This document shows, piece by piece, positions 36,107 through 51,527 of a stretch of DNA of 64,000 nt. Under the pieces are notes generated by a model that was not told where the DNA came from, made no database searches, and worked only from the letters and a program-made list of their open reading frames with translations. The translations under genes were made by a program, and so were the position numbers. Numbering within the stretch: the stretch's first letter is position 1; every line of letters starts with the position of its first letter. This stretch comes from Thiomicrorhabdus sp. GTDB lineage: Bacteria > Pseudomonadota > Gammaproteobacteria > Thiomicrospirales > Thiomicrospiraceae. The DNA lies in assembly GCA_033238645.1 (NCBI GenBank), contig BQXR01000010.1, positions 6,128 to 70,127 on the forward strand, in the 5' to 3' direction.

Positions 36107-37039
36107 ATGATCCAATCCTTAAAGCAGCACCCTTACGCAATGGGTTTTCTACTCGCCATAATCGGTACCGCGCTCTTCTCTCTAAAATCTATCTTTATCA
36201 AACTCGCTTATATTGAAGGGTTAAATGCCGACAGTGTTTTAATGGTGCGTATGGCTATCGCGCTACCGATCTATCTGGTGATTCTAGCCTGGTTGATAAA
36301 AACCAAACCGATACCAGAGTGCCTCTCTTCTAAACTACTCAAGATCACTCTGTTAGGCTTTATCGGCTACTACCTTAGTTCATGGCTCGATCTTAAAGGA
36401 TTGGAGATGATCTCTGCACAGCTAGAGCGATTGACCCTTTTCACCTATCCCATACTGGTGGCAATTTTAGGGGCACTGTTTTTCAATACGCCTTTAACCC
36501 GAAAAATCATTCTAGCGTTGATTGTGACTTATGTAGGGCTGGTAATTGTCTTTATGCAGGAGTTATCACTCTCAGGAGAGAATGTGCCCCTAGGAATACT
36601 ACTGGTCTTCTTAGCAGCCTTAAGCTTCTCTTTCTATGTGCTATTTGGTAAAAACCTGATACAGCAGATCGGTAGCCTCTGGTTTACCAGTCTCGCTATG
36701 AGTGTATCCAGTGCGTTTGTGCTTATTCATTTTGCTATCATTGGTGATTTTGACAATCTGCATATCAGCAACCTAGCATGGCTGTGGCTAGTACTGCTAG
36801 CAGTTGTCAGTACCGTAATTCCCAGCTTTATGATCAGTGAAGCCATTCACAGAATAGGCCCTGCGCAGACGGGTATTATTGGTATTCTTGGACCCATAAT
36901 GACCATGGGACTTGCCATCTATCTATTGAATGAAGTCTTTACCATTTGGCATCTATTAGGTATGTGTCTAGTGATTGGTGGCGTGGCGATTCTGACTATT
37001 AAGAAGAATCCTTTTCACTACCTTAAAAAGATCAAATAA
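36107..37039 (+). CDS. DMT/EamA family transporter
   Basis: Ten TM segments in two EamA repeats. Confidence 0.88.
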   Translation: MIQSLKQHPYAMGFLLAIIGTALFSLKSIFIKLAYIEGLNADSVLMVRMAIALPIYLVILAWLIKTKPIPECLSSKLLKITLLGFIGYYLSSWLDLKGLEMISAQLERLTLFTYPILVAILGALFFNTPLTRKIILALIVTYVGLVIVFMQELSLSGENVPLGILLVFLAALSFSFYVLFGKNLIQQIGSLWFTSLAMSVSSAFVLIHFAIIGDFDNLHISNLAWLWLVLLAVVSTVIPSFMISEAIHRIGPAQTGIIGILGPIMTMGLAIYLLNEVFTIWHLLGMCLVIGGVAILTIKKNPFHYLKKIK

Positions 37040-37044
37040 AGTTT

Positions 37045-37064
37045 CCCCCCCCCCTGCTCAAAAT
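37045..37064 (+). repeat. Polar motif copy (intergenic, after eamA)
   Basis: C10-TGCTCAAAAT(ATTT); 20 bp are identical to the coding copy at 31890. Confidence 0.8.
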
Positions 37065-37181
37065 ATTTGATGGGGTTTTGAATGCTTATTAAATACTTCA
37101 AAACAGGGTGAAAGCGGGATAAATAGTGAAATAGGCCGTATTTTCTTGTTAGATCCTATGAAAGGGGGATAGAGAGAAGAG

Positions 37182-38114
37182 TTATTTAGCTTTATAGATG
37201 TCTTCGACACCTGCTGGTGGATGACGGTAGCGTTTGTAAGCCCAAAGATATTGTTCAGTTGCCAACTCAATACAAGACTGTACCCCACTGTTCAAAGCCG
37301 TTGTCGCTTGCAGCTCATCTTCACTCGCAATATCTGGGTCTGCTGGCAGGTAGTGCACACAGAAACCTTGCACATCAGGCAGACGTTTGACCACCATAAA
37401 GAGAAACGCACAATCTGTCTTTTGAATTAACTTGCTGACCAAGGTCATGGTTCTAGCAGGACGGTTATAGAATGGCGCAAAAACACCACCAGACTCACCA
37501 GGATCTTGATCAGGAAGAATCACCGTCACCTCTCTATTTTTTAGTGCTTTGATCAAGGTGCGCACACCTCGAATATCGGTTGGAGCCAACTTTCCACCAA
37601 AACGAGAACGTGCTTTAACCATAAAAGATTCTACCGAGGGTACATTCGGCGGTCTATAGAGAAAAGAGGATGGGTACTGAGTTGAGATCACTGGCACGGC
37701 CATCTCCCAATTGCCCATATGCGGTACTAGAAAGATGATACCTTTGTTTTTTGCCAAAGCCTCGTCAACCAGCTCTTGACCCTTAACCTCTTTGATTAAA
37801 CCATTTAATTCACTCTGTCTCCAGCACCAGACAGGGCCAAACTCAGCGGTCGTTTTACCTGACTCAAGCAGTGTCTGCTTAACCAACTGATTCTGTTCAG
37901 CCAAGCTTAGGTTGGGATAAACCGCTTGTAGGTTCTTTTTAACGATAGACTTGGTACTACTTGGCAACCAATACAGCAGGTAGCCAATTGCTATACCAAC
38001 CACCTGAACCATTCGATAAGGCATCCAGCTAAATATCTGTACCAAACCTTTTAGCAGAGCACCCGCCCAAACTTGTTGATTCTCTTGCTCTACTTGTGGA
38101 CTCTTCTTGCTCAC
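37182..38114 (-). CDS. lpxL: Lipid A biosynthesis acyltransferase (LpxL/HtrB family)
   Basis: PHMGNWE, LPDQDP, APFY and QYLWAYKRY motifs. Confidence 0.85.
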   Translation of the reverse strand: MSKKSPQVEQENQQVWAGALLKGLVQIFSWMPYRMVQVVGIAIGYLLYWLPSSTKSIVKKNLQAVYPNLSLAEQNQLVKQTLLESGKTTAEFGPVWCWRQSELNGLIKEVKGQELVDEALAKNKGIIFLVPHMGNWEMAVPVISTQYPSSFLYRPPNVPSVESFMVKARSRFGGKLAPTDIRGVRTLIKALKNREVTVILPDQDPGESGGVFAPFYNRPARTMTLVSKLIQKTDCAFLFMVVKRLPDVQGFCVHYLPADPDIASEDELQATTALNSGVQSCIELATEQYLWAYKRYRHPPAGVEDIYKAK

Positions 38115-38126
38115 AAAAAACCTGCT

Positions 38127-38660
38127 TTATTTACTTTTTGGCTCGGCATAAGGGTTATTGGTAAAGGTAATCTCGATCACTTTGCCTAAGTTAGTTGAAG
38201 ATACCTCAGCCTCTTCATACTCATAAGCCTTAGCTTCACCTGAACGATCGATTTTTAAATCAGTAAAATTAAATAGTTTAGGATCACACAACTGACTTGG
38301 TGCAATATCCTTCATAGAGCCAAAGATATTCTCAACACGTCCAGGGGTATCCTCATCCCACTCACTCACTCAACATTGCTTTAACATTTTGTCTTTGTAA
38401 GTTGTCTTGAGAACCACAAAGGTTACAAGGGATAATTGGAAAGTCGTTCATACTTGCATAAGCAGCAATATCTTTTTCACAGCAATTGGCCAGCGGACGA
38501 ATTATGATATTACGCTTGTCATCACTGGGTAACTTTGGCGGCATGGCTTTTAATTTACTGTTGAAAAACATACTCAAAAAAGTGTTTCGACAATATCATC
38601 CATATGATGACCTAGTGCAATTTTAATTGCACCAATCTTCTCCGCAAAAGAGTACAAAGT
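38127..38660 (-). pseudogene. ttcA: 3' remnant of ttcA with two frameshifts
   Basis: Begins mid-gene at [22 protein letters not shown]. One T is missing in the run at 38576-38581 and there is an extra GAGT unit at 38360-38372. ORF-track ORFs 38362-38577 and 38127-38369 are its pieces. Confidence 0.92.
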
Positions 38661-38671
38661 TATTTAGATGA

Positions 38672-39580
38672 CTATTCTTTATTAATGACTGGAATATTAA
38701 CACCAACTTCATAGGAATTTGAAAAGTTCGTTGTTGAAATCACTGCATCCTCGTACTCATATACCTTTGCTTCACCAGTTCTATCAATCTTTAAGTTTTT
38801 AAAATCAAACAATTCTGTATCACATAATTGACTAGGAGCCACATTCCTTAGGCTATTAAAAATAGTTTCTATTCGCCCAGGTGAGGTTCTATCCCATTCA
38901 CTAATCATTGCCTTAACATTTTGCCTTTGGAGATTATCTTGAGAGCCGCACAAATTGCAAGGAATAATCGGAAACTCCTTAACTTCTGCATATTGAACAA
39001 TAGCCTTTTCCCTGCAATAAGCTAAAGGCCTGATCACAACATTACGCTTATCATCACTTAATAGTTTCGGAGGCATTGATTTTAGCTTGCCGTTAAAGAA
39101 CATTGACAAAAATAGAGTTTCAACTATGTCATCCATATGATGACCTAATGCAATTTTCGTTGCACCAATCTTTTCAGCAAATCCATAAAGGGTTCCTCTA
39201 CGTAGCCTTGAACACAATCCACAAGTTGTTTTACCCTCAGGCACTTTTTCTTTTACTACAGAGTATGTATCTTTATCAATAATGTAATAAGGAACACCAA
39301 GCTTTTCTAAATAATTTGGTAAAATTTCTTCGGGAAATCCAGGTTGCTTTTGGTCGAGATTTACAGCAATAACTTCAAAGTTAATGGGGGCTGTTTGTTT
39401 AAAATAAAGAAGAATGTCGAGCATTGCAAAACTATCTTTTCCACCACTCAAACATGTCATCACGACATCACCATCTTCAATCATAGAATAATCAGCAATC
39501 GCCTTACCCACACTACCCCTAATTTTTTTTCTTAATCGATTGAATGTGTAATCAACTTGATCAAATCCTTTTTCGCCCAT
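38672..39580 (-). CDS. ttcA: tRNA 2-thiocytidine(32) synthetase TtcA (intact)
   Basis: SGGKDS PP-loop, CGLC, GHHMDD and CNLC motifs. Confidence 0.96.
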
Positions 39581-39689
39581 TATTACTCTACTCTATAAAT
39601 ATTTGAAGCCAACTATTATCTCACATGTCCATAAAGTATAAACAAAGTTAATTTTAGAATTGTCAATCGCTATTAATTTTATTCACTCA

Positions 39690-40130
39690 GGCGCACCATC
39701 AATAAAAGCTTTATATAATCCAACATCTAATCTAGGACTCGATGAGAAACAGTTTTACGCTTTAGAATCATTGGTTTTTTATGCATGATCTCTACTACGT
39801 CATCACGATAAGGTAGCTTATCAGTAAATAGATAGATTGAGATTAACTTTTTAACCTTCTATTGATCAAGACCAAAATCAGAAACAATCGAATTGAGTCC
39901 ATCTCCTCTACTTGCACGGAAGGCAACACCACCAGTGCTGCTTGACCATAAGAACGCGTTAAACGACCCGCACCTAACTTAATGCCTCCAATAAAGTTGC
40001 TAAAAAAGAACATGCTGCCATCCCCAATACATTGGCACTTAACATGCGAATTCAAACACTATAAAACGTCCTCTTTTTATTAAAAAATCGGTGGTTTTTA
40101 ATCAGAGAAAAGGTTCGAGTACTTGGGAGG
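39690..40130 (-). pseudogene. yigZ: Degenerate YigZ/IMPACT-family gene
   Basis: Fragments in different frames: LIKRGRFIVF (cf. IKKSRFI), GGIKLGAGRLTRSYG (cf. GGIKLGxGGLVRAY) and DFGLDQ*KVKKLI...YRDDVVEI. Ends are approximate. Confidence 0.6.
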
Positions 40131-40224
40131 AAAAAATTCTTTCTGAACTTCTTATTTATTCAACTAAGGCATAGTAATAAGTAGATCTGCCAGCCGCTGC
40201 TATTCAGACCAAAGTTTGCGGCAA

Positions 40225-40450
40225 ATGTTAGACAGAGTTACAAATTGTGGTCAGTGTTTTTTTGAAAATCTAGGTTTAGATAAGTTATTAAGGTTTTTTC
40301 GGTACCTTTTTGTTTCTGTACTTTTATTTACATGACTGATTATTTCTTCGGTTGCCTTTCAGCAAAGTTAAAATTCCGTTGTGGTGGATTAAGTCACGAG
40401 TATTTATGACGAAGATACATTTCGAGTCACAATCAAAGGTTGCTCTTCTA
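40225..40450 (+). pseudogene. Truncated secreted thermonuclease (SNase-like) remnant
   Basis: One frame reads a hydrophobic signal-like stretch and then SVVVD*VTSIYDEDTFRVTIKG (40393-40440), resembling the SNase N-terminal YDxDT motif. It has in-frame stops and ends just before merA. Confidence 0.45.
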
Positions 40451-40483
40451 ATTATAGGGCAACGAGTTTACATTAAAAAAATA

Positions 40484-41911
40484 TTAACCTGCACAACAAG
40501 AAAGCTGAGAAACGTCCTGTGAAAAAGTTTGGGCACAAAGCTTTAACCCTTCCACTTGAGTTAAATAAGGAAAAAGTGTATCCGCTAAATCCGTAATTGT
40601 CATTTTCTGTGCAACAGCAATCGCTGCAGTTTGTATCATTTCGCTAGCAACATCAGCAACGATTTGAGCACCAATTAATTGTTCAGTACTCTCATTCGCA
40701 ACCAATTGTATAAACCCTGTCGTATTAAAATTTGCTAAGGAACGAGGCACATGCTCTAAATCCAGCTTACGTGAAATAACAGATATCCCTTGTTTTTCTG
40801 CCTGTTTAACAGTTAAACCGACAGTTGCCACCTGTGGATCTGTAAAGACTACGGAGGGTAACGTTGTTAAATCTAAGACAGCATTACCTCCTACCATATT
40901 TTTCCCAGCACGGGTACCTGCCGCTGCTGCGACATAAACAAATTGAGGTAACTGAGTACAATCGCCCGCAGCATAGACATTTTCCTGACTCGTCTGAAGG
41001 TCTTTGCCAACAACAATCCGCCCTTGATTATCTGTATCAATATTGGTTTCCTGTAAATTGAGTTGATCCGTATTGGCTTGTCTTCCTGTCGCAATTAAAA
41101 CCTGCTCTGATTCCAATTCATCACCAGATGTCGTAGTACATTTGAACTGGTTATTTATATAACAAACTGACTCAAGTTCGCTGTGAGTAAGGACATTCAT
41201 CCCCTCAGATTCCAAGGTAGCCATTAACAACTCACCAATTGCAGAATCTTCGTTAGATAATAGAGTCGTGCGAGCGATTAAAGTAACTTGTGACCCCAAA
41301 CGTAAGAGTGCTTGTGCAATTTCTAAAGCAACCATAGAAGCACCTATAATAACCAGACTTTTCGGTGTTGTTTCTGTAAACAACGCTTCCGTGGATGTCC
41401 AATAAGGCGCATCCTTTAATCCATTAATGGGAGGAATATTCGCCCTAGCCCCTGTGGCGATCAATATTTTATCCGGCGATAAACGTAACGTACCACCGTC
41501 ATTTAATTCAACCTGTAATTCATTTGAATTATGAAATTTTGCACACCCTTCAATCAATTCAATAAGAGGGTTTTCTTCAAGAAGATTTTCATATTTGGCC
41601 GCACGTAGCTCATCGACACGTTGATGTATTTGCTTTGCAAGCATTGAACGGTTCAAGTCAAAAAACTTAATATGTAACGAAGGAAAGGCTGTTTGCTCTG
41701 TCTCGTGAGCAACTTTTGCTGCTTGAATGAGTATTTTGGACGGAACACACCCCACATTTACACAAGTGCCGCCTATCATTTTATTCGCTTCAATAATAGA
41801 GACCTTTGCACCCGACTTAGTGGCTTGAATTGCTGCTGCAAATGCGGCCGAACCAGAGCCAATAATGGCAACATGAAGAGGTCTGTTTTGATCTATACAA
41901 CAATCGTTCAT
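40484..41911 (-). CDS. merA: Mercuric reductase (short form lacking the NmerA domain)
   Basis: GSGSAA FAD motif, GGTCVNVGCVPSK redox disulfide and C-terminal SCCAG. Confidence 0.96.
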   Translation of the reverse strand: MNDCCIDQNRPLHVAIIGSGSAAFAAAIQATKSGAKVSIIEANKMIGGTCVNVGCVPSKILIQAAKVAHETEQTAFPSLHIKFFDLNRSMLAKQIHQRVDELRAAKYENLLEENPLIELIEGCAKFHNSNELQVELNDGGTLRLSPDKILIATGARANIPPINGLKDAPYWTSTEALFTETTPKSLVIIGASMVALEIAQALLRLGSQVTLIARTTLLSNEDSAIGELLMATLESEGMNVLTHSELESVCYINNQFKCTTTSGDELESEQVLIATGRQANTDQLNLQETNIDTDNQGRIVVGKDLQTSQENVYAAGDCTQLPQFVYVAAAAGTRAGKNMVGGNAVLDLTTLPSVVFTDPQVATVGLTVKQAEKQGISVISRKLDLEHVPRSLANFNTTGFIQLVANESTEQLIGAQIVADVASEMIQTAAIAVAQKMTITDLADTLFPYLTQVEGLKLCAQTFSQDVSQLSCCAG

Positions 41912-41920
41912 ATCACATTC

Positions 41921-42193
41921 CTATTTCTTTAATGTTGAAGGATAACCGGCATTCTCAGTGGTAAAAGTTAAATCCTCAACTTCTACAGCCTGATCATCAA
42001 ATATCACAATGGCCGTTTTATCTTTTAATGACGTTTTTACCACTTGAACACCCTCTACTTTCAATAAAGATTTTTTTACTGTAATCGGACAGGTTGGGCA
42101 GAACATGCCTGGAACATCGAGTATGATCGTTTTTTCAGCTGCCAAGGCATTAAAAGAAATGAATAAACTGAATATTAAAGTTATTGTTTTCAT
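41921..42193 (-). CDS. merP: Periplasmic mercury-binding protein
   Basis: Signal peptide and GMFCPTCPITV HMA motif. Confidence 0.92.
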   Translation of the reverse strand: MKTITLIFSLFISFNALAAEKTIILDVPGMFCPTCPITVKKSLLKVEGVQVVKTSLKDKTAIVIFDDQAVEVEDLTFTTENAGYPSTLKK

Positions 42194-42232
42194 GATGATT
42201 TCCTTATAGATATTTTAAAGAACATTTATTTT

Positions 42233-42595
42233 TTAATATAACCACGATTCTGGAAGCAGAGGAATCCACCAGGTAGAAGTCACTAAGATTGTTGCTAGAA
42301 CTAAGGCTGCCCAGAATAATCGACGACGATTGATTTGAACCTTAGGAATTGAACACGCTTCACCTGCTTGGCAAGACTGCTGTGGTTTATAAAGCCCCCA
42401 ACCAGTCCAGATGAATAAGATTATTGTCACAAGGATAAAATAGGGTTTGAAGGGTGCAAAAATCACAAGGCCAGATATCCATGAACCACTGACACCTAAC
42501 AAAATTAGAACCAAAGGCCCTGCACAGCACAAACTTGCACCAATGGCTGTGGTGATTGCTCCAATCAATGGTAATTTAGAGTTTTGAATAGACAT
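42233..42595 (-). CDS. merT: Mercuric ion transporter
   Basis: SLCCAGPLVL and CQAGEACSIP cysteine pairs. Confidence 0.94.
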   Translation of the reverse strand: MSIQNSKLPLIGAITTAIGASLCCAGPLVLILLGVSGSWISGLVIFAPFKPYFILVTIILFIWTGWGLYKPQQSCQAGEACSIPKVQINRRRLFWAALVLATILVTSTWWIPLLPESWLY

Positions 42596-42634
42596 ATAAC
42601 ACCTCTTTTAATTGAACTTTTTCTTTCATTTAAA

Positions 42635-42665
42635 ATCATACCTCCGTACCTAGGTACGGAAGTAA
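42635..42665 (-). promoter_or_regulatory. MerR operator/promoter of merTPA
   Basis: Perfect dyad TCCGTACCTAGGTACGGA (42643-42660) lies between -35 TTACTT (42665-42660) and -10 TATGAT (42640-42635) with a 19-bp spacer, as in Tn21/Tn501 mer promoters. Confidence 0.9.
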
Positions 42666-42748
42666 GAGGAAAAAAACAATCAAATTAAAAAAAATAATAA
42701 TTAAAGGAGGGTAATTTGCTTAATAATAGATATAAGCATTTAATTGAA

Positions 42749-43174
42749 TTAATCTTTGTATAAATTAGAAATTATGGGGCAAGAGATACTTGTATCTTCT
42801 GTAAGAGTACAAGTTATTGTGAGCTCATCTAAAACTCGTTCCAAACGAGAAAGTTCGTCTATCTTTGCTCGAACATCAAGTAATTTATTTTGTGCAAGAC
42901 TTCTAACTTCAGCACAACAGTGCGACCCATCTTCCAAAGCTAACAAACTTGCAATTTCATCCAGACTAAAACCTAATCCTTGAGCAGATTTAATAAACTT
43001 AACTCTCTTAACATCTGTTAAGTCATATTTTCGTATACCACCATAAGGTTTAACAGGCTCATTCAGTAGCTTTTTTCTTTGATAGAAACGAATTGTCTCA
43101 ACTGACACGCCAGATATCTTTGCAAACGTACCGATAGTCAGGCTCTTCAAATTATCATTAAGATTTTTGTCCAT
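42749..43174 (-). CDS. merR: Hg(II)-responsive regulator MerR
   Basis: [22 protein letters not shown] and Hg-binding Cys in GSHCC and C...CPII. Start set at ATG 43174 behind an AGGA RBS. Confidence 0.94.
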
Positions 43175-43281
43175 AAGATCATTCCTATAAATAACCACTA
43201 AAAAACGTAATGACAGCTATTAATCTATAGTTTTTTTGCTATTTTATGACTGCGTTTTTACAGAGGCTACTTACTAAAAGC

Positions 43282-44256
43282 TCAATTCCTAGATTTGATT
43301 TTTCTTCTAGGGTAAATAGATGGGATCAGTCGAATATAGAACAACTCCCCAACAAGTTCTACCATTGTTTGAGTAACAATTATGGCGGCCGCTAATATCC
43401 AGCCCTCTGGTAAAGCCAAAGCCAAAGGAAGAACCACCAGTGAATTACGAGTACCTGCACTAAAAAGCAAAGCTCTACCAGCTCCAACGTTCAAGTGAAA
43501 AGCACAAGCCGTTAACTTAGCAAGTAAGGGCATAATTACCATAAAAGCAACATAGACAGGAATAACCAACCAAACCATACTAAGCTCTTCTTCTACTCTA
43601 CCTATTTGAGACGCCACTACAAAAAATAGAACAAAGGCCATTAAGGGAACCGGTAGCCAAGTAATTCCATTAAGCCAAGTTACACCAATTGATTGTTTCT
43701 TAGCCCATAATTCGGTTATAAACGCCAATACTAAAGGCAAAGCAATCAAAAGAAAAAATGCTTCAATGAAGGGAGCTGCACTCATAACGTGTGTAACCAC
43801 ATCCCCCATGAAAAGCCATAGATAAATAGGTAGAAATATAATCTGAGCGATTAATAGTAGAGGAGTTGATGCAAGTAGAAGTTTAGAATCCCCTTTTCCC
43901 ATGTGAGTAAAAACAATAACATAGTCAATACATGGCGTGAGAAGAACAAGGTAGAAGCCGAGAAGTAGCACGGGGTCTTCGGGCAGAAAAAGCGACAATA
44001 ACCATACTAATATTGGAGCAATAATAAAATTAATTGTAAATAAAGCGGCATTAAACCTTATGTTAGAAAATGCTTCTCTCAGTTTTAAGAAAGGAACTAG
44101 AGTAAACATACTATAAAGTAAAGCAGCTAAAATAGGAGAAATTAATACTTCTAAACTTGTACCAATATTTGGGTTCACCAGCCCAATATACAACCCAAAA
44201 CCTAAGCTTAAAGTATAAATCCAGATTTGGTTTTTTTCCAGTTGTCCCCTAGACAT
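43282..44256 (-). CDS. Acr3/bile acid:Na+ symporter-family arsenic resistance protein
   Basis: LEKNQIWIY start, N(F)IIAP, LLTPCIDY and TRNSLVVLPLAL motifs; about 10 TM segments; ars context. Confidence 0.8.
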   Translation of the reverse strand: MSRGQLEKNQIWIYTLSLGFGLYIGLVNPNIGTSLEVLISPILAALLYSMFTLVPFLKLREAFSNIRFNAALFTINFIIAPILVWLLSLFLPEDPVLLLGFYLVLLTPCIDYVIVFTHMGKGDSKLLLASTPLLLIAQIIFLPIYLWLFMGDVVTHVMSAAPFIEAFFLLIALPLVLAFITELWAKKQSIGVTWLNGITWLPVPLMAFVLFFVVASQIGRVEEELSMVWLVIPVYVAFMVIMPLLAKLTACAFHLNVGAGRALLFSAGTRNSLVVLPLALALPEGWILAAAIIVTQTMVELVGELFYIRLIPSIYPRRKIKSRN

Positions 44257-44304
44257 ACCGTCTTCCTTTAAGTGACCTGTAAGACCTGAATCGTAACTTA
44301 AAAC

Positions 44305-44783
44305 CTAAATACTATTTAGACCAATCTCGTCTAACTCTTGTTGTAGTTTAACTCTGCTAAGCTTCTTATGTGGTAACAGAGTAAATAAGTTAATACGAGT
44401 ACTGAGTATTCTAAGTACATCTTTGTATTCTTTTAGGTCGCCATCGTCTGAATGAGGGTCTTCGACACCCCAGTGAGCATTAATAGGTTGTCCAGGCCAA
44501 ATTGGACATTGCTCACCATTAGCTTTGTCACAAACGGTAATAACAAAGTCTATTTTAGAAGCTCCGTCTTTAGCAAACTCATCCCAACTTTTTGGTTCTA
44601 AATCCTCTGGAAGAGCGATTTTGGCATCATTCAACACTTTAATAACACTTGGGTTAACCTCCTCTTTAGGATGGCTTCCTGCACTGTAGGCTTTAAAACA
44701 CCCTTTACCCCAGTGGTTTAAAAGGCTTCGGCCATAATGCTTCTTTTTGAATTCCCAGTGCATAGAAACAATACGTTATACAT
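44305..44783 (-). pseudogene. arsC: Thioredoxin-dependent arsenate reductase (LMW-PTP fold), frameshifted
   Basis: AGGAGG RBS, then ATG 44783 reads MYNVLFLCTGNSKRSIMAEAF and stops at 44720-44718. The rest (LNHW...SAGSHP...TVCD...CPIWPG...HWGVEDP) continues in the -1 frame. Confidence 0.85.
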
Positions 44784-44801
44784 AGCTTTTAACCTCCTAA
44801 G

Positions 44802-45821
44802 TTAAGCATCAAGCTCTTGATTAGCTTTACCTACTTTCATCGTCAACTCCATCATGCGTTGCATATAGCCAATTTCATTGTCGTACCATGCTAAAACTTT
44901 AACGTGAGTATTATTAACTACACGGGTTGATTGAGCATCAATGACTGATGAGCACGTTTCGCCCTCATAATCTACTGACACCAATGGCAATTCCTCATAA
45001 CCCAAGATGTCTTTTAGGTAGGTTTCAGAGGCTTCTTTAAATAGACTATTGACCTCTACTACCGAGGTTGGTCGCTGCATTTCCATGACCAAATCCGTCA
45101 AAGAAGCATTCATAAACGGTACACGAACTGCAATGCCATCCAAGCGCCCGTTTAGCTCTGGAAAGATGGAGCCAATCGCGGTGGCAGAACCAGTTGACGT
45201 TGGAATCAATGATTCAAAGCTTGAACGTGCACGTCGCCAATCTTTATGACCATGATCCACCACTTTTTGGGTATTGGTGCGGTCGTGCATGGTGGTAATT
45301 GAGCCGTGCGAAATCCCGATTTTTTCATGTAACACTTTTATAACAGGAGCAATACAGTTAGTTGTACAAGAGGCAGCTGTAATCAGACAGTCTTCACCAG
45401 CCACAAAAATATCATCATTAATGCCCATGACAATGTTTTTCACGCCTTCTTTAAAGGGGGCGGCGACAATCACTTGTTTAACGCCTTGGTCAAAATAAGG
45501 CTGTACATCTGCACGTGTGCGGAATTTACCGGTGCATTCTAGAACTACATCAATATCAAGCGCACCCCAATCAAAATCCTCTAGAGCATTTCGAGAGCTG
45601 TAACCAATTTGTTTTTCATGAATCACAATCTGACCATTTTCTTCACTCGCTTTATTATGCCAGCGACCATGGGCTGAATCGTAATTTAAAAGATGAGCAG
45701 AACCTGCTGCATCCGTGGCAATTTCATTGATATGCACAAACTCAATGCCTTCCCAGTCAAATGCCTGACGTAAACCTAAACGCCCCATACGCCCAAAACC
45801 ATTTATTGCTACACGAATCAT
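44802..45821 (-). CDS. gap: Arsenic-associated (ArsJ-type) glyceraldehyde-3-phosphate dehydrogenase
   Basis: INGFGRMGRL, ASCTTNC and WYDNE motifs; ars-operon context. Confidence 0.9.
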   Translation of the reverse strand: MIRVAINGFGRMGRLGLRQAFDWEGIEFVHINEIATDAAGSAHLLNYDSAHGRWHNKASEENGQIVIHEKQIGYSSRNALEDFDWGALDIDVVLECTGKFRTRADVQPYFDQGVKQVIVAAPFKEGVKNIVMGINDDIFVAGEDCLITAASCTTNCIAPVIKVLHEKIGISHGSITTMHDRTNTQKVVDHGHKDWRRARSSFESLIPTSTGSATAIGSIFPELNGRLDGIAVRVPFMNASLTDLVMEMQRPTSVVEVNSLFKEASETYLKDILGYEELPLVSVDYEGETCSSVIDAQSTRVVNNTHVKVLAWYDNEIGYMQRMMELTMKVGKANQELDA

Positions 45822-45864
45822 CTTGACCCCTTATAATTACATTTGGAAAAAATAAAATAAACTG

Positions 45865-45888
45865 TATATACGCATATACGGATTAATC
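45865..45888. promoter_or_regulatory. ArsR-type operator 1 (between gap and arsR)
   Basis: TATATACGCATATACGGATTAATC, an imperfect dyad in the divergent gap/arsR spacer; 21 of 24 bases match the site at 49589. Confidence 0.7.
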
Positions 45889-45926
45889 CATTATACAAAA
45901 ATTAATTAAAGTACAATAAAAGTTTT

Positions 45927-46298
45927 ATGACAAATTTAGATGATTTAAAAGCTTTAGAAGAACACGCTCAATTTCACAAAGCATTTGCCGAACCAGTAAG
46001 GCTCAGAATCTTAGCGTTGCTAAGAACCAGAGAATCACTTTGTGTATGTGATTTAGTATCTGTACTGGAACTTTCACAAAGCACTGTTTCAAGGCATCTT
46101 GCCTATCTTAAAAATCAAGGGATCGTAAACTCGTGGCGTGAGGGAACCTGGATACACTACTCATTGGATAAAAATCATCCCGCTTCTGAGGTTCTTTTGC
46201 CAAGCTTGGCGTTTTTAGGCACGCTAGAGCAGGCAAAAAATGACTGCTTAGCTTTGAAAAGATATGAGAAATCACCCAGGCAGTGTAAAGCTAATTAA
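45927..46298 (+). CDS. arsR: ArsR/SmtB-family metalloregulator
   Basis: RLRIL...LCVCDL...SQSTVSRHLAYLK...REGTWIHYSL. Confidence 0.93.
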   Translation: MTNLDDLKALEEHAQFHKAFAEPVRLRILALLRTRESLCVCDLVSVLELSQSTVSRHLAYLKNQGIVNSWREGTWIHYSLDKNHPASEVLLPSLAFLGTLEQAKNDCLALKRYEKSPRQCKAN

Positions 46299-46523
46299 TT
46301 TTCAAACCTAAAACCCATCTCGGTTTAAAGCCCAAGTTAAAGGCAACGTAGGTACTGGTAAACTCAGCAACCAGTTAGAATTGCCAGCATTGAAAGACTT
46401 CTGCCAAAGGCGGTATTTTTATGGTTAAAATTTATATTCAAGGGAGCTGTCAACCTAACTTCAGTCTCGCTACAAAAGTCATATTTTAAACTCCTAGCAG
46501 TGGTTCTTTGCATCCAAGACTTT

Positions 46524-46900
46524 TTAGACATCTCGTAAACAGCATTTACCTGAAGGATTACATGAACATTTTTTTAGCTTTGTCTGTTTTGTGACATAGT
46601 CTTTTATTTCTGGGCTATCTATATAGTTTTGCTAGGTCACACCAAACAATAGCAAACTTAACGGTCAGGATTTGCAGATATTATTCCAAACATTTGTCTT
46701 AATTGACCATTTTCGTTGACCAAACAATCTCTTGTAAAATAAACCAGCTCGTATTTCGAGTCATCGCAAAAATAAAATTATTTTTCTGATAAACCCAACA
46801 ACTAGGGTTGCTTAGAATACGAAGGAGAGTGGCAACAGGACTGCGACAAACAACAAGATGACATTGATGCTTTCCTTTGATCGTATCTTTAGAGGTACCG
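46524..46900 (-). pseudogene. Decayed zf_CopZ-like Zn/[2Fe-2S] metallochaperone
   Basis: Fragments KHQC..., YFCDDSKYELVYF (46774 onward), VCYC(F)GV (46654-46646, one T lost) and CSCNPSGKCCLRDV* (46568-46524). It carries stops and frameshifts and is absent from the ORF track. Confidence 0.75.
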
Positions 46901-46950
46901 ATTTAGTAAATTCCGATACCTTTAGTTTTTTAACGGATTATTGCTTGCAA

Positions 46951-47886
46951 TCACATTGAAGATTCTAATTTTAAGTAAGTACGATTCAGGTTTTGTTTGT
47001 GCCATGAATCATAGTGCTCAAGGTGTTTGAATTCAAGCCAGTCTTTGTTCTCTGAGACCGCCGTATCCACACCAGCCATATTTTCAGCTTTTTCTTTCAT
47101 GGATTCATTCAGCTTTTTCAAATAGTCACCTGTTTCAGCATCGGCCTGTTTCCAATCAGAAACTTTACCGTGACCAGGTACAATGAACTCGGCTGGTAAT
47201 TGACGCATTAGCTGATAAGCCTCATTCCAGGTTATCGGATTAGACCAAGGGTGAACCCCTAGCATACGATCTAAATAAATGATGTCACCCGTAAACAAGA
47301 CTTTTTGTTTTGGTAGCCATAGAGCACTATCGCCAGGAAAATGAGCATCACCATAGAAATTTAGATGCATTTCAACGCCGCCAATATTCAGTGTATTGGA
47401 TTCTTTTTCCAATACCACGTCTGCGGTTTTCATTTTCACGCCCTTCAAGGCGGGAACTTTTTTGACCAAGCCCTCTACCTCTTGGTTAAACATCGATGAC
47501 TGGATTTTAACACTGCCTTTGTAGGCATAGATTTTTGCACCGTGCTTGGAAAAATAATCATTGCCTAACCAGCGGTGGTCTTGGCTACCGATATTAATCA
47601 CCGCCACAATAGGCTGGTCTTTAATGCCTTTGGCAATGGCCACCAGTTTTTTGGCAGCGGCATCACCCGAACCGGAGTCAACCAGTACCCAACCATCAGC
47701 TGTATCAATAAAACCAATATTATTGTTAAGTCCTAGGTTTTCAGGCGTACGGTCGGTAATTGGTCCGACATAAGCATAAACACCATCAGTCACCTTTTGA
47801 GCTTTGAAGTCCATGGCTTGAGTTGAAAAAGACACAACGGCCAAAGCAGTAGTTGCAACCAGTCCCAAGAAAGTACGTCTTTTCAT
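46951..47886 (-). CDS. Tat-exported metallo-beta-lactamase-fold hydrolase (SoxH-like)
   Basis: MKRRTFLG twin-arginine signal plus VLVDSG, GSQDHRWLGN, AHFPGD, FTGD and VPGHG motifs. Confidence 0.8.
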   Translation of the reverse strand: MKRRTFLGLVATTALAVVSFSTQAMDFKAQKVTDGVYAYVGPITDRTPENLGLNNNIGFIDTADGWVLVDSGSGDAAAKKLVAIAKGIKDQPIVAVINIGSQDHRWLGNDYFSKHGAKIYAYKGSVKIQSSMFNQEVEGLVKKVPALKGVKMKTADVVLEKESNTLNIGGVEMHLNFYGDAHFPGDSALWLPKQKVLFTGDIIYLDRMLGVHPWSNPITWNEAYQLMRQLPAEFIVPGHGKVSDWKQADAETGDYLKKLNESMKEKAENMAGVDTAVSENKDWLEFKHLEHYDSWHKQNLNRTYLKLESSM

Positions 47887-47931
47887 ATTCAATTTTCCTT
47901 TTGGTAAGTGCAACAAGTGATGAGTGTGCGC

Positions 47932-48576
47932 TTACGACAACCACTCGATAATCATCTTTTTATTTGGCATTCCGCCTGAATGAACAACTTGATCGTTAAT
48001 GACGATGCCAGGAGTGCTCATAATGCCATAAGCAGCAATCTCAGTAATCTCTTCGATTTTAATGACCTTCACCTCTACCCCAAGTTCTTGAGCAGTAGAC
48101 TCAATCAGCTTCATAGTATTTGTACAGGTTGCACAGCCTGTACCGAGAACTTTAATTTCAAGTGCGCCACTACCATAGTAGCCAGTGGTAGAAGGCGAAT
48201 CTTTACCACCACAACAAGGGGTTTCTTTTTCACTTATTGCTTCGAGTTCTGAACTACAACAGCCATCTTGAGGCTTAATTTCACCAGGCTGAGCAGTCGG
48301 ACTACAACAACTTGTTGTTTCTTTAGCTTGTGCTTTTGGCTTTGTTCCACAAGCACCGCCAGGACAGCATTCACCCGTTTTAGATAGCTTGCCGACCAAT
48401 TCCGCAGGACACCAACCTGTAAAAGTAGCCTGAAACCCCATAAATGCAGGCAAAGTTGCCAACCACAGCCAGTTGAGAGTTAGTAAATTTGTTTGACCTG
48501 AAAAATGTGCCAAACCAATGCCAATCAAAATCATTGCTGTCATTAAACGAATCATTAAATTGTCTTTCATTATCAT
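47932..48576 (-). CDS. DUF2892 membrane domain + Cys-rich linker + small thioredoxin-like (CxxC) fusion
   Basis: Two TM segments ending in FTGWCP, four CC pairs, then IKVLGTGCATC...YGIMSTPGIVIN. The start may be ATG 48570. Confidence 0.8.
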   Translation of the reverse strand: MIMKDNLMIRLMTAMILIGIGLAHFSGQTNLLTLNWLWLATLPAFMGFQATFTGWCPAELVGKLSKTGECCPGGACGTKPKAQAKETTSCCSPTAQPGEIKPQDGCCSSELEAISEKETPCCGGKDSPSTTGYYGSGALEIKVLGTGCATCTNTMKLIESTAQELGVEVKVIKIEEITEIAAYGIMSTPGIVINDQVVHSGGMPNKKMIIEWLS

Positions 48577-48591
48577 TTCCCCTTGAAAGAT

Positions 48592-49554
48592 TTATGAATA
48601 TAAAAAATTAAATAAATAGCCTACTAAGATAAACGCAACAGTTAATACGCCAACAAACACTGCCAATGCTGGCCAACGAATCACTTTACGAAGAATTAAC
48701 AATTCAGGTAATGATAAAGCAGCAATACTCATCATCAAAGCAAGGCTCGTTCCTAGTGGAACACCTTTACCCAGCATCGCTTCGATAAAAGGAATTACAC
48801 CTGTTGCATTTGAATAGAGAGGCACACCGACTACTACTGCCGCTGGTACACTCCACCAGCTAGACGAATCACTTAAATAGGTAGTGACCCAAGCTTCAGG
48901 CACGAACCCGTGAAAAGCAGCACCTAAAGCAATCCCAATGAAAATCCAATACCAGATGCGTTTTACAATGACTTTGACTTCATTCCAAGCAAAATCATGA
49001 CGCTTGGAAAAACTCCCTGTATGAGCTTGCTGTTCTTGTTGCTGACGCATTTTAATATCCCAGACGTAGGACTCTACCCAGCGCTCAGGTTTAAACCATT
49101 CCATAATGATAGAACCAAAATATGCTACTGTGATTCCAGCCAAAACATATAACAAGGCCACTTCCCATCCTAATAGAGTGGCCAAAAGTATTACTGCAAC
49201 CTCATTAATCATAGGGCTGGCGATAAGAAAGGCAAAAGTAATCCCCAAAGGAATTCGTGCTTCAACAAATCCGATAAACAGAGGCACAGAAGAACAAGAG
49301 CAAAAGGGTGTCACGCCGCCTAAAGTAATGGCTAAAGACCTAGCCTGCCATTTTGGGCGACCAGCCACGATTTGGCGAACTCTTTCAGTAGAAATAAACG
49401 CGCGTAACAGTCCCATGACATAAATAATGACGACCAGTAAGAAAAATATCTTTATGGTATCCATTATAAAAAACTGAATGGCCGTGCCTAAGTGGCTCTG
49501 AGAGCTTAACTCTAAAAGATCAAACGCAACCCAATTACCGATTTGCTCAAACAT
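48592..49554 (-). CDS. arsP: ArsP/DUF318-family permease
   Basis: TPFCSCSSVPLF, FLIASPMINE, GVPLYSNA and ALSLPE motifs. Confidence 0.85.
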   Translation of the reverse strand: MFEQIGNWVAFDLLELSSQSHLGTAIQFFIMDTIKIFFLLVVIIYVMGLLRAFISTERVRQIVAGRPKWQARSLAITLGGVTPFCSCSSVPLFIGFVEARIPLGITFAFLIASPMINEVAVILLATLLGWEVALLYVLAGITVAYFGSIIMEWFKPERWVESYVWDIKMRQQQEQQAHTGSFSKRHDFAWNEVKVIVKRIWYWIFIGIALGAAFHGFVPEAWVTTYLSDSSSWWSVPAAVVVGVPLYSNATGVIPFIEAMLGKGVPLGTSLALMMSIAALSLPELLILRKVIRWPALAVFVGVLTVAFILVGYLFNFLYS

Positions 49555-49588
49555 AGATACTCCATGGAAAAATAAGAATTGAAACCAT

Positions 49589-49612
49589 TATATCCGCATA
49601 AGCGGATTAATC
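49589..49612. promoter_or_regulatory. ArsR-type operator 2 (upstream of arsP)
   Basis: TATATCCGCATAAGCGGATTAATC with dyad ATCCGC-N4-GCGGAT, 35 bp upstream of the permease start. Confidence 0.7.
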
Positions 49613-50000
49613 AAAATATTTTTTAGAGTTGTATATAAGAAATGACTTGGATACCGTTCCAAGAATGGATGCTTACTGAAGTAATTGATGGGGAATTTAA
49701 AATCGTAAAAGGTGGTTCTAATAGTACAATAAAACACTGTGAATCTAAACGTTAATACTCAGAGAAGAGGTTTTAGCTTCCTTTGGTAGCTCGAAGTATA
49801 AGAAGAGTCTCCATTGAGTTGGAGAATATCGTTTACAAAACCCGAATTGGCCAGTTAGAGGCGAATAATTAACCTTTGTGTACGAAATGGTGTTGCCATT
49901 CCAGCTATCTTAAACAGCCTGAGCTGCTTATTTTATATTCGTTTTGTACAACCCTATGTATTAAGGCTGTGATTTATATGAGACCTTTTCATCTTTTTAA

Positions 50001-50675
50001 TTAGTCAATCTCTCTGCGACTGATCAACTGACTAATTGCTGTCTGCCATGATTTGGATAAGGCGGGATGATTAACCACTGCTTGCAGTGATGACCAATAC
50101 TGATCTGTTTGGTGAAACTGCTTCGCTAAAAAGAGTGCTTCTATGCTAATTTTGTAAGGTGTTTTAGCCTGATCATCATCTCGAGTTAACCAAGTAACAG
50201 GTAAGTCCGCTTTAAGCTCGCCTTCCGCCAAGACTCGACAGTAAAATCCAACCCGTCCACTCTCTGAATAGGTCTTTAAAAAATCTGTTGCTGACCAGTC
50301 ACCCAGACTCTCTGCCTGTGCGCCTAATTTCCAACAAGGTGAACGAGGTTGAGTCACTTCCAACAGAACATTACCAATTTGGAAACGATCCCCCAAACAA
50401 ACTTGACTTTCATCCAAGCCAGAAATTGTCAGGTTTTCACCTAAAAAGCCAAATGGTTGTCCAATTTTAAAAAGATCGTAGCTACTTTCAGGCATTACAA
50501 AAACAGCTTTATCTTCACCACCATGGTTTTTGCGATCCGCTTGCTCATCTCCTGCTAAACCTTGTTTTCCAACAGAGACCACTTCAGCAACAGCCTGTTT
50601 ATGCAAACCGCTTAAAGTACCGTCTCGCCAAGGTTGAGCTTGGATTTTCCCAATATTTACTGATACCAACTTCAT
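50001..50675 (-). CDS. MOSC domain protein (YiiM-like)
   Basis: HGGEDKAV, GENLT, QPRSPCWK and GFYCRVL motifs. Confidence 0.9.
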   Translation of the reverse strand: MKLVSVNIGKIQAQPWRDGTLSGLHKQAVAEVVSVGKQGLAGDEQADRKNHGGEDKAVFVMPESSYDLFKIGQPFGFLGENLTISGLDESQVCLGDRFQIGNVLLEVTQPRSPCWKLGAQAESLGDWSATDFLKTYSESGRVGFYCRVLAEGELKADLPVTWLTRDDDQAKTPYKISIEALFLAKQFHQTDQYWSSLQAVVNHPALSKSWQTAISQLISRREID

Positions 50676-50710
50676 GACAAAACCTTTTAAATCAACTTTT
50701 TAGGAGGCTA

Positions 50711-50727
50711 CCCCCCCAGCTCAAAAT
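50711..50727 (+). repeat. Polar motif variant (intergenic)
   Basis: C7-AGCTCAAAAT. Confidence 0.7.
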
Positions 50728-50759
50728 CTACAACAACTATTTAATCGCTAAGAAAAACC

Positions 50760-51527
50760 CTAGATAACTACCTGTAAATGCTCATAAAAAATAAACAGCC
50801 CCATTAAGACCAAAAAGATGGCGAACCCCTGTTTTAGATGCGTTTGGTTTACTTCACTGCTTAATTTATGACCTAACCAACCACCTAAAATACCAATAAT
50901 AGAGAAGATAAAAATAATGTACCAATCAACGCTTAAATTCAGTGCATCCAATACCGTTAAATAGCCTAAAAAACCTGCAAAGGATTTAAAGGCAATAATG
51001 ACCAAACTGGTTCCAACGGCAAGTCTCATTGATAAACCACCCAGTAGAACAAGTGCTGGAATGATTAAAAAGCCACCCCCTACACCTACAATTCCTGTTA
51101 TAAAACCGACAACTAATCCATCAGCCATTATCTTGTGAATTGCACGTTCAGAACGCTCTTTATCTGCACCCACCAAATTAACAGGCTTAAACATTAAGTA
51201 AGAGGCAATCAATAGTAGTGCAGCAAAAATCAACATCTGAACGGAATCACTGATAAAGTGTGCCACCCTAGCACCCGCAATAGCCCCTGCCATTCCTGGA
51301 ATTCCAAACAAAAATACCGTTCGCCATTTAACTTGGTTTTGACGTGCATAAGGGATGGCAGCAAAAACACTGATCACACCCACAATCATCAAAGAGCCTG
51401 CAATAGCAACCTTTACCTCTTGACCCACCAGATAAGTCAGTACTGGCACGGTTAAAATAGAACCACCTGAGCCAAGCAGCCCCAAAGTAACCCCAATTAA
51501 CAGTGCGCCAATCCAAGCTAAGATCAT
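50760..51527 (-). CDS. TauE/SafE-family sulfite/sulfur-compound exporter
   Basis: [13 protein letters not shown] and [13 protein letters not shown] repeats. Confidence 0.88.

Follow-up and report, generated by a model that had tools for sequence, protein, structure and literature searches.

Probable in situ displacement of ttcA by a xenologue in Thiomicrorhabdus, with the 3' part of the resident gene still beside the invader

Xenologous displacement of genes in situ was reportedly described for mosaic operons by Omelchenko and co-workers in Genome Biology in 2003. Among the closest described systems, one concerns the tRNA-modification gene ttcA itself: in Escherichia coli K-12 the attL of the integrase-bearing 23-kb prophage Rac falls within the first ~50 bp of ttcA, four N-terminal residues of the resulting hybrid, which is the working gene, are changed, and a relic named ttcC persists as a 51-bp 5' piece of ttcA at the far end of Rac, 23 kb away (PMC4632033). 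For the type VI secretion effector modules of Vibrio cholerae, sequential displacement has been attributed to homology-facilitated illegitimate recombination (PMC5361080). In naturally transformable bacteria this process involves one non-homologous end-join and the deletion of resident sequence (PMC3240628). Here we analyse a stretch of 64,000 nt from the sulfur-oxidising marine bacterium Thiomicrorhabdus sp. (contig BQXR01000010.1 of assembly GCA_033238645.1, a 2.26-Mb draft genome in 23 contigs), hereafter called the window, which contains an intact ttcA followed by the 3' part of a second one. We consider it very probable that the resident ttcA was displaced in its own chromosomal slot by a foreign ttcA, which stands at the end of a mosaic insert of ~11 kb and is joined non-homologously to what is left of the resident gene.

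An earlier note on this DNA had placed the second ttcA 11 bp after the intact one, starting abruptly at TLYSFAEK and ending 12 bp before lpxL, and these coordinates were confirmed: the remnant begins at codon 130 of the intact copy, extends for 176 codons (534 bp, in three frame pieces) and ends with a stop codon 12 bp short of lpxL, whose start is at 38114. Both copies were compared with 99 species genomes of the family (7 genera; labels beginning with G), with metagenomic contigs (labels beginning with L) and with proteins (labels beginning with P), among which P0014, P0008 and P0005 are the TtcA proteins of L156-L158. We refer to the type of the intact copy as clade A and to the native type, which includes the remnant, as clade B. 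Separate trees for the remnant and for each half of the gene, as the note had proposed, set the two copies apart. In the 3'-half protein tree the remnant joins P0014, P0008 and P0005 at 97/94 in a group whose sister is the G047 group; P0002 is the partner of the intact copy (95/82), and both belong with P0003 and P0004 to a separate clade (100/91). The 3'-half DNA tree gives the same split (98/99 and 99/98) and places the remnant with L156, L157 and L158 at 98/99. The 5'-half tree has the intact copy as sister to P0002 (97/85), outside the native clade (98/96).

The identities point the same way. Across all 176 codons the remnant is 87.5% identical in amino acids (aa) and 80-82% in nucleotides (nt) to the ttcA of L156, L157 and L158, in line with the identity of its flanking genes to the same relatives, while the intact copy reaches only 74-77% against these genes. 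The remnant shares its C-terminal tail signature with the ttcA of L156-L158, and the tail signatures agree with the trees. The P0002 protein is 84% aa identical to the intact copy, though the lpxL of its host is only 57% identical to that of the window. Because of the trees of both halves, the identities, the tail signatures and the distant lpxL of the P0002 host, we conclude that the intact gene is foreign over its entire length and that the remnant is the host's own gene. The central claim of the earlier note, a xenologous replacement that brought in the intact copy and left the remnant of the host's gene, is in this way supported by trees, identities and composition. A local tandem duplication, after which the copies diverged and one of them decayed, would account for the head-to-tail order and the very short spacer, but the copies are only 71% identical in nt (73% in aa) and belong to different clades, each is closer to the ttcA of other organisms (87.5% and 84% aa) and they differ in composition. 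A recent duplication, which the note had named as one of two findings that would overturn its reading, is further contradicted by the trees, where the copies do not group together; a constraint making them sisters was rejected by the approximately unbiased (AU) test (p = 0.0015 for protein, 2.5e-5 for DNA). We regard the probability of a duplication as practically negligible.

The position of the remnant relative to lpxL is also that of the native gene in relatives. Classical ttcA is found in six species genomes of the same genus, and in G047, G001, G048 and G018, whose contigs span the whole locus, the order is trmA-TauE-MOSC-ttcA-lpxL, facing EamA-TehB-TrkH-TrkA, with no insert. Closer relatives yet are found in the metagenomic contigs L156, L157 and L158 (lpxL 78-79% aa identical to that of the window), which have the same order, again with no insert; L156 is the closest relative on the flanks, with an lpxL at 79% aa and a MOSC gene that is sister to the window's at 99/95. 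The order MOSC ... ttcA-lpxL is conserved in all of these and in L150, and the MOSC-ttcA spacer varies among relatives, containing an MHYT gene in L150, 1.1 kb in G007 and ORFan genes in L153. These comparisons indicate trmA-TauE-MOSC-ttcA-lpxL as the probable ancestral order. Comparison with island-free relatives had been suggested in the earlier note, and the remnant indeed groups with their full-length ttcA, which stands at the same slot. DNA homology to this native ttcA begins exactly at 38660/38661, the 11 bp before it match nothing native, and the native 5' half (spacer plus first 129 codons) was found nowhere in the genome. The reverse polarity, with the intact copy inherited vertically and the 3' fragment imported, could draw on the conflict among local gene trees in the genus and on a placement of the remnant near the foreign clade that is not formally rejected. 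It is hardly credible, since the remnant is as close to its nearest relatives as its flanks are and occupies the exact same position relative to lpxL, and since the intact copy is located where the insert ends, is a compositional outlier and has its nearest relatives in hosts with more distant flanks.

TtcA is defined by the PP-loop SGGKDS and by CxxC cysteines that hold an Fe-S cluster (Jäger et al. 2004; Bouvier et al. 2014). The translation of the intact copy (302 aa) contains the PP-loop as LSGGKDS, together with the cysteine motifs CGLC and CNLC, and scores 463.9 bits against the NCBIfam model TtcA NF007972 (cut-off 272), with residues 9-272 covered. The gene is a compositional outlier. 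AGA or AGG is used in 10 of its 14 Arg codons (4/6 and 6/8 by halves), compared with 22.3% AGR among Arg codons genome-wide (binomial p = 1.2e-4), and its GC content of 35.4% falls at the 1.7th percentile among 1333 long open reading frames (ORFs) of the same genome; the remnant uses CGT in 4 of its 5 Arg codons. A recount returned the Arg figures that the earlier note had given for both copies. No other ttcA was found in the genome, nor any gene for the type-2 TtcA-like protein described below. With the native 5' part gone, including the ATP-binding PP-loop, the foreign gene would be the only possible source of the predicted TtcA activity (2-thiolation of C32 in tRNA) in this genome. Upstream of it lies a promoter-like match (TTTATA-16-GATAAT with TG), the number of such sites being not above that in shuffled sequence.

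The join between the copies is non-homologous: a point 11 bp past the foreign stop codon is linked to the native gene at mid-length. As the earlier note had seen, similarity between the copies is highest at the start of the remnant, where identity is 80% for the first 66 nt and 86% for a repeat of 73 nt, and this observation stands; as a special mark it does not, the intact copy being 76-85% identical over those 66 nt to every clade-B orthologue, which is ordinary ttcA conservation. Gene conversion or an att core at the remnant start was rejected on the same ground, the identity there being equal to that with any orthologue. The junction also resembles the lpxL stop region over 19 nt, which we took for a chance similarity. 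We found no att-type repeats or inverted ends flanking the insert, and no tRNA or known RNA as an integration target either in the window or within 37000-51000.

These results bear on the other origin that the note had proposed, an att-type integration whose element body was later deleted. In such a Rac-like event, a site-specific element would have entered ttcA carrying a replacement gene end and then lost its body. That ttcA is a known prophage target in E. coli (PMC4632033) and that the copies are most similar beside the junction could be counted in its favour; however, both halves of the intact gene are foreign rather than hybrid, the inserted DNA lies upstream of the intact gene, and only 11 bp with no element body separate the copies. 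Moreover, none of the ORFs in 38661-50000 encodes an integrase, flanking direct repeats are absent, the similarity on the junction side equals that between any two ttcA lineages, and the native 5' fragment is absent from the genome. We consider an origin of this kind highly improbable. The join also raises the question of an assembly artefact, in which reads of two strains or species were joined as a false tandem, and the genome is a draft of 23 contigs. The longest exact word common to both copies, however, has 19 nt and is found ~60 nt into the remnant, away from the join, and the 15- and 21-mers that span the join are all unique in the genome; a mis-join in the assembly graph would be expected to give a hybrid at a common word, not an end-to-middle join. 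Completeness is 99.99% with 0% contamination, the remnant has frameshifts of its own, and the same kind of tandem occurs in L153 and in the independently assembled L154 and L155. An artefact is accordingly very unlikely, and a displacement of the resident gene by a foreign ttcA is still the reading we prefer.

The resident ttcA is inactivated by the loss of codons 1-129 and by two frameshifts, which the earlier note had reported and which were located as T6/T7 (-1) and (GAGT)3/(GAGT)2 (+4). Changes specific to the remnant at conserved sites include Y59N and R61C, so that the substitution of AYCRE by ANCCE listed in the note is real, and in addition L45P and T12I. The change of FNGK to FNSK, by contrast, had been taken for decay and is not, FNSK being the normal form both in the clade to which the remnant belongs and in P0003 and P0004. 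Substitutions unique to the remnant lineage comprise 10 nonsynonymous and 20 synonymous changes, the same ratio as in intact orthologues (9/18, 6/18, 5/10). This ratio means that most of the branch evolved under selection and that the decay is young. The remnant is best described as a presumably dead relic that is collecting its first frameshifts. A metagenome scan with its last 78 codons for closer native relatives returned only partial matches at 62-66%. Since a consensus scan of the DNA from the intact ttcA to lpxL gave no terminator-like site, and gave no promoter-like site for lpxL on the coding (minus) strand of the relic, lpxL is probably transcribed by read-through across the relic.

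The extra DNA, which separates codon 130 of the native ttcA from the MOSC gene, extends from 38661 to a point in 49624-50000, and the intact ttcA is its lpxL-proximal end. The merRTPA genes (window 40488-43279) are 86% nt identical to G041:C2:127342-130112, compared with ~65-70% for other genes of G041, which suggests that the mer operon was exchanged fairly recently within the genus. The arsenic-type modules encode an SBF/Acr3-like transporter, an ArsC-like protein, an ArsJ-type GAPDH, ArsR, a SoxH-like MBL protein, a thioredoxin-like protein and a permease, and the GAPDH-ArsR-MBL-thioredoxin-permease modules resemble, at 77-78% nt identity, a cluster at a different locus of G044. The 900-bp gap upstream of the intact ttcA, which separates it from the mer operon, holds two relics. 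One is an hsdR relic with internal stops and a frameshift, 80% nt identical to the hsdR 3' ends of G022 and G010, the G022 gene having HsdR Pfam domains. The other is a 45-nt IS3 relic, 93% nt identical to a part of G000 contig C23 that encodes an IS3-type transposase fragment; protein-level traces of IS3 may extend from ~39890 to 40040. Because the parts of the insert differ in their nearest relatives and carry relics, they point to assembly by several events. That the intact ttcA arrived together with the metal genes is unproven, and its upstream region gave no match to those of L150 and L153.

How the displacement came about is a separate matter. The foreign ttcA stems from another lineage within the same genus-level gene pool, and the native promoter, the MOSC-ttcA spacer and the first 129 codons are gone. 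In a two-step route, foreign DNA would first have landed in the variable MOSC-ttcA spacer to give two complete copies; a deletion would then have run from just behind the foreign gene into the redundant native ttcA and stopped short of lpxL. In a one-step route, linear DNA would have integrated with an illegitimate end-join inside the native gene, as in homology-facilitated illegitimate recombination. The two-step route is slightly favoured, at somewhat less than even chances, and the one-step route follows as a possibility of slightly lower standing; neither is strongly favoured, because no anchor tract and no two-copy intermediate were found. A recombinant MOSC flank was considered as the homologous anchor and rejected, the MOSC gene being sister to that of L156.

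Several points weigh against the displacement as we describe it, or against parts of it. The junction rests on a single assembly, and the frameshift in the T run could be a sequencing error. The AU test did not reject a placement of the remnant at the base of the foreign clade (p = 0.18 for protein, 0.07 for DNA, on the 176-codon alignment). No close donor was found: the best matches to the intact copy were 84% aa in the protein search and 77% nt, a contig scan gave at best 72% identity outside the genus among the matches listed, and no closer copy was found in the 99 genomes of the family. The left boundary of the insert is placed only to within 377 bp, in an interval that cannot be aligned to any relative. 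Finally, neither the homologous anchor tract of the one-step route nor a genome with two complete ttcA copies, as the two-step route predicts, was found. The features of the locus are collected in Table 1.

Table 1. Features of the ttcA locus, with positions in the window unless another contig is named
Feature	Position	Strand	Basis
Intact ttcA, clade A xenologue (302 aa)	38672..39580	-	NF007972 score; both halves sister to P0002; composition
Spacer (11 bp), foreign stop codon to native remnant	38661..38671	.	junction at 38660/38661
Native ttcA remnant, clade B, codon 130 to end; pseudogene without PP-loop	38127..38660	-	alignment and trees
Frameshift 1 in remnant	38576..38581	-	alignment; T6 vs T7 in relatives (-1)
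Frameshift 2 in remnant	38360..38371	-	alignment; (GAGT)3 vs (GAGT)2 in relatives (+4)
lpxL-type lipid A acyltransferase gene, native right flank	37182..38114	-	NCBIfam matches; conserved ttcA-lpxL adjacency
Promoter-like site upstream of intact ttcA	39615..39642	-	consensus match only
hsdR relic (type I restriction), last ~68 codons	39686..39888	-	nt identity; tblastn
IS3-family transposase gene relic	39991..40035	+	nt identity to G000 contig C23
merR-merT-merP-merA operon within insert	40484..43198	-	NCBIfam; nt identity to G041:C2
Arsenic-type modules and their upstream operator region	43282..49623	.	NCBIfam and Pfam; G044 identity
Interval containing the left boundary of the insert	49624..50000	.	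no match to relatives' MOSC-ttcA spacer
MOSC-domain gene, native left flank	50001..50675	-	sister to L156 MOSC gene (99/95)
Type-2 TtcA-like gene, example from G010	L029:1435-2259		

A second case of the same kind is found on L153 (3479-6191; also on L154 and L155, from other samples), where a clade-A ttcA, 79-81% aa identical to the intact copy of the window, is followed by 195 bp, a type-2 TtcA-like gene and lpxL. The type-2 gene is here cut inside the SGGKDS motif; it is still an open frame with no frameshifts and is 96% aa identical to the full-length gene of G007. The type-2 protein is 36% identical to classical TtcA, and a full-length example scores 207 bits on NF007972, below the cut-off of 272. 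Its gene is present in 88 of the 99 species genomes, in all 7 genera, and adjoins lpxL wherever this was checked within the genus. Classical ttcA occurs in only 7 of the 99, all in this genus, and the type-2 gene is absent from exactly those 7 plus 4 others; the complementary distributions suggest that the two genes have the same function. Several type-2 genes contain a single in-frame stop (TAG, TAA or TGA; for example G023:C1:274677-275471 and G049:C17:130745-131539) and may be pseudogenes or sequencing errors. L150 was considered as a close relative of the type-2 genome G054 and dropped, the nt identity being only 66-81%.

Judging from these comparisons, the slot next to lpxL has changed its occupant at least three times: from type-2 to classical ttcA in the lineage or lineages of the seven genomes, from type-2 to clade A in L153, and from clade B to clade A in the window. 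No firmer count of events can be given because the local gene trees (MetH, MOSC, lpxL) disagree on the relations of the lineages. The upstream cargo differs by lineage, with metal and restriction genes in the window, three ORFan genes in L153 and an MHYT gene in L150. It is conceivable, but we think it rather doubtful, that the lpxL-adjacent slot is a recurrent displacement site through which classical ttcA spreads among species of the genus, replacing the type-2 gene, as the one inherited vertically in the family, or an earlier classical allele, each time with different upstream cargo. A complete housekeeping gene would then serve as the landing end of integrase-free islands, and the 3' part of the resident would be spared in that deletions cannot enter lpxL or its expression signals.

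Some observations concern the surroundings of the locus. The MOSC gene tree places the window lineage with type-2 genomes (G022, G057, G041), lpxL and the native ttcA instead have their closer relatives in the G047 group, and MetH is equally distant from both; recombination near ttcA seems to be common. The MOSC gene of G007 (G007:C95:364-1018) matches as two overlapping pieces, residues 1-156 at 74% and then 76 aa at 49%, and may be frameshifted. A 78-bp sequence at 49833-49910, inside the left-boundary interval of the insert, has copies at 86-93% identity on contigs C2 and C5 of G000, partial ones on C9, C3 and C4, and others in G047, G001, G048 and G057. Being neither a tRNA nor matched by any Rfam family, it looks like a small dispersed repeat of the genus. 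A 24-nt palindromic site occurs at 45865-45888 and at 49589-49612 (88% identical), upstream of two arsenic-type operons, and a stretch matching it lies upstream of the permease gene in G044.

As a rule, in-place displacement is recognised from discordant trees a long time after it took place; here the displaced 3' half is still beside the invader. Together with an island-free relative as the before-state and a second lineage showing the same process on a different resident gene, the locus provides a natural series that bears on how replacements are made, by one illegitimate join or by addition followed by deletion, and on why a tRNA-modification gene that is not essential keeps being replaced at one locus. 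In practical terms, the remnant should carry a pseudogene annotation, and the intact gene is unfit as a vertical phylogenetic marker for the organism.

Compared with described systems, the locus is most like xenologous displacement in situ, in that a foreign homologue occupies the same slot and function between conserved neighbours and in that the tree of the window ttcA conflicts with those of the flanks and of the resident copy. It is unlike the usual case, which is inferred from trees after the resident has vanished, in that 534 bp of the resident survive beside the invader and in that a relative (L153) offers a second, independent intermediate. With Rac it shares the gene and the persistence of a ttcA fragment after the arrival of foreign DNA; in contrast to Rac, the working gene in the window is wholly foreign, the relic is an abutting 534-bp 3' half, and both an integrase and att repeats are absent. 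As in the Vibrio type VI modules, incoming DNA at a conserved locus displaces a resident whose downstream material remains as a record; the leftovers described there are immunity genes under selection, whereas here a housekeeping-gene fragment without evident function is left. The single junction without homology, with foreign DNA set against an arbitrary point of the resident, resembles homology-facilitated illegitimate recombination. The homologous anchor that defines the process was, however, not found here, the MOSC flank being native and the left boundary lying in unalignable sequence. Overall, the finding is an ordinary kind of gene replacement that has been caught mid-way, and one that has apparently been repeated at the same spot in related species.

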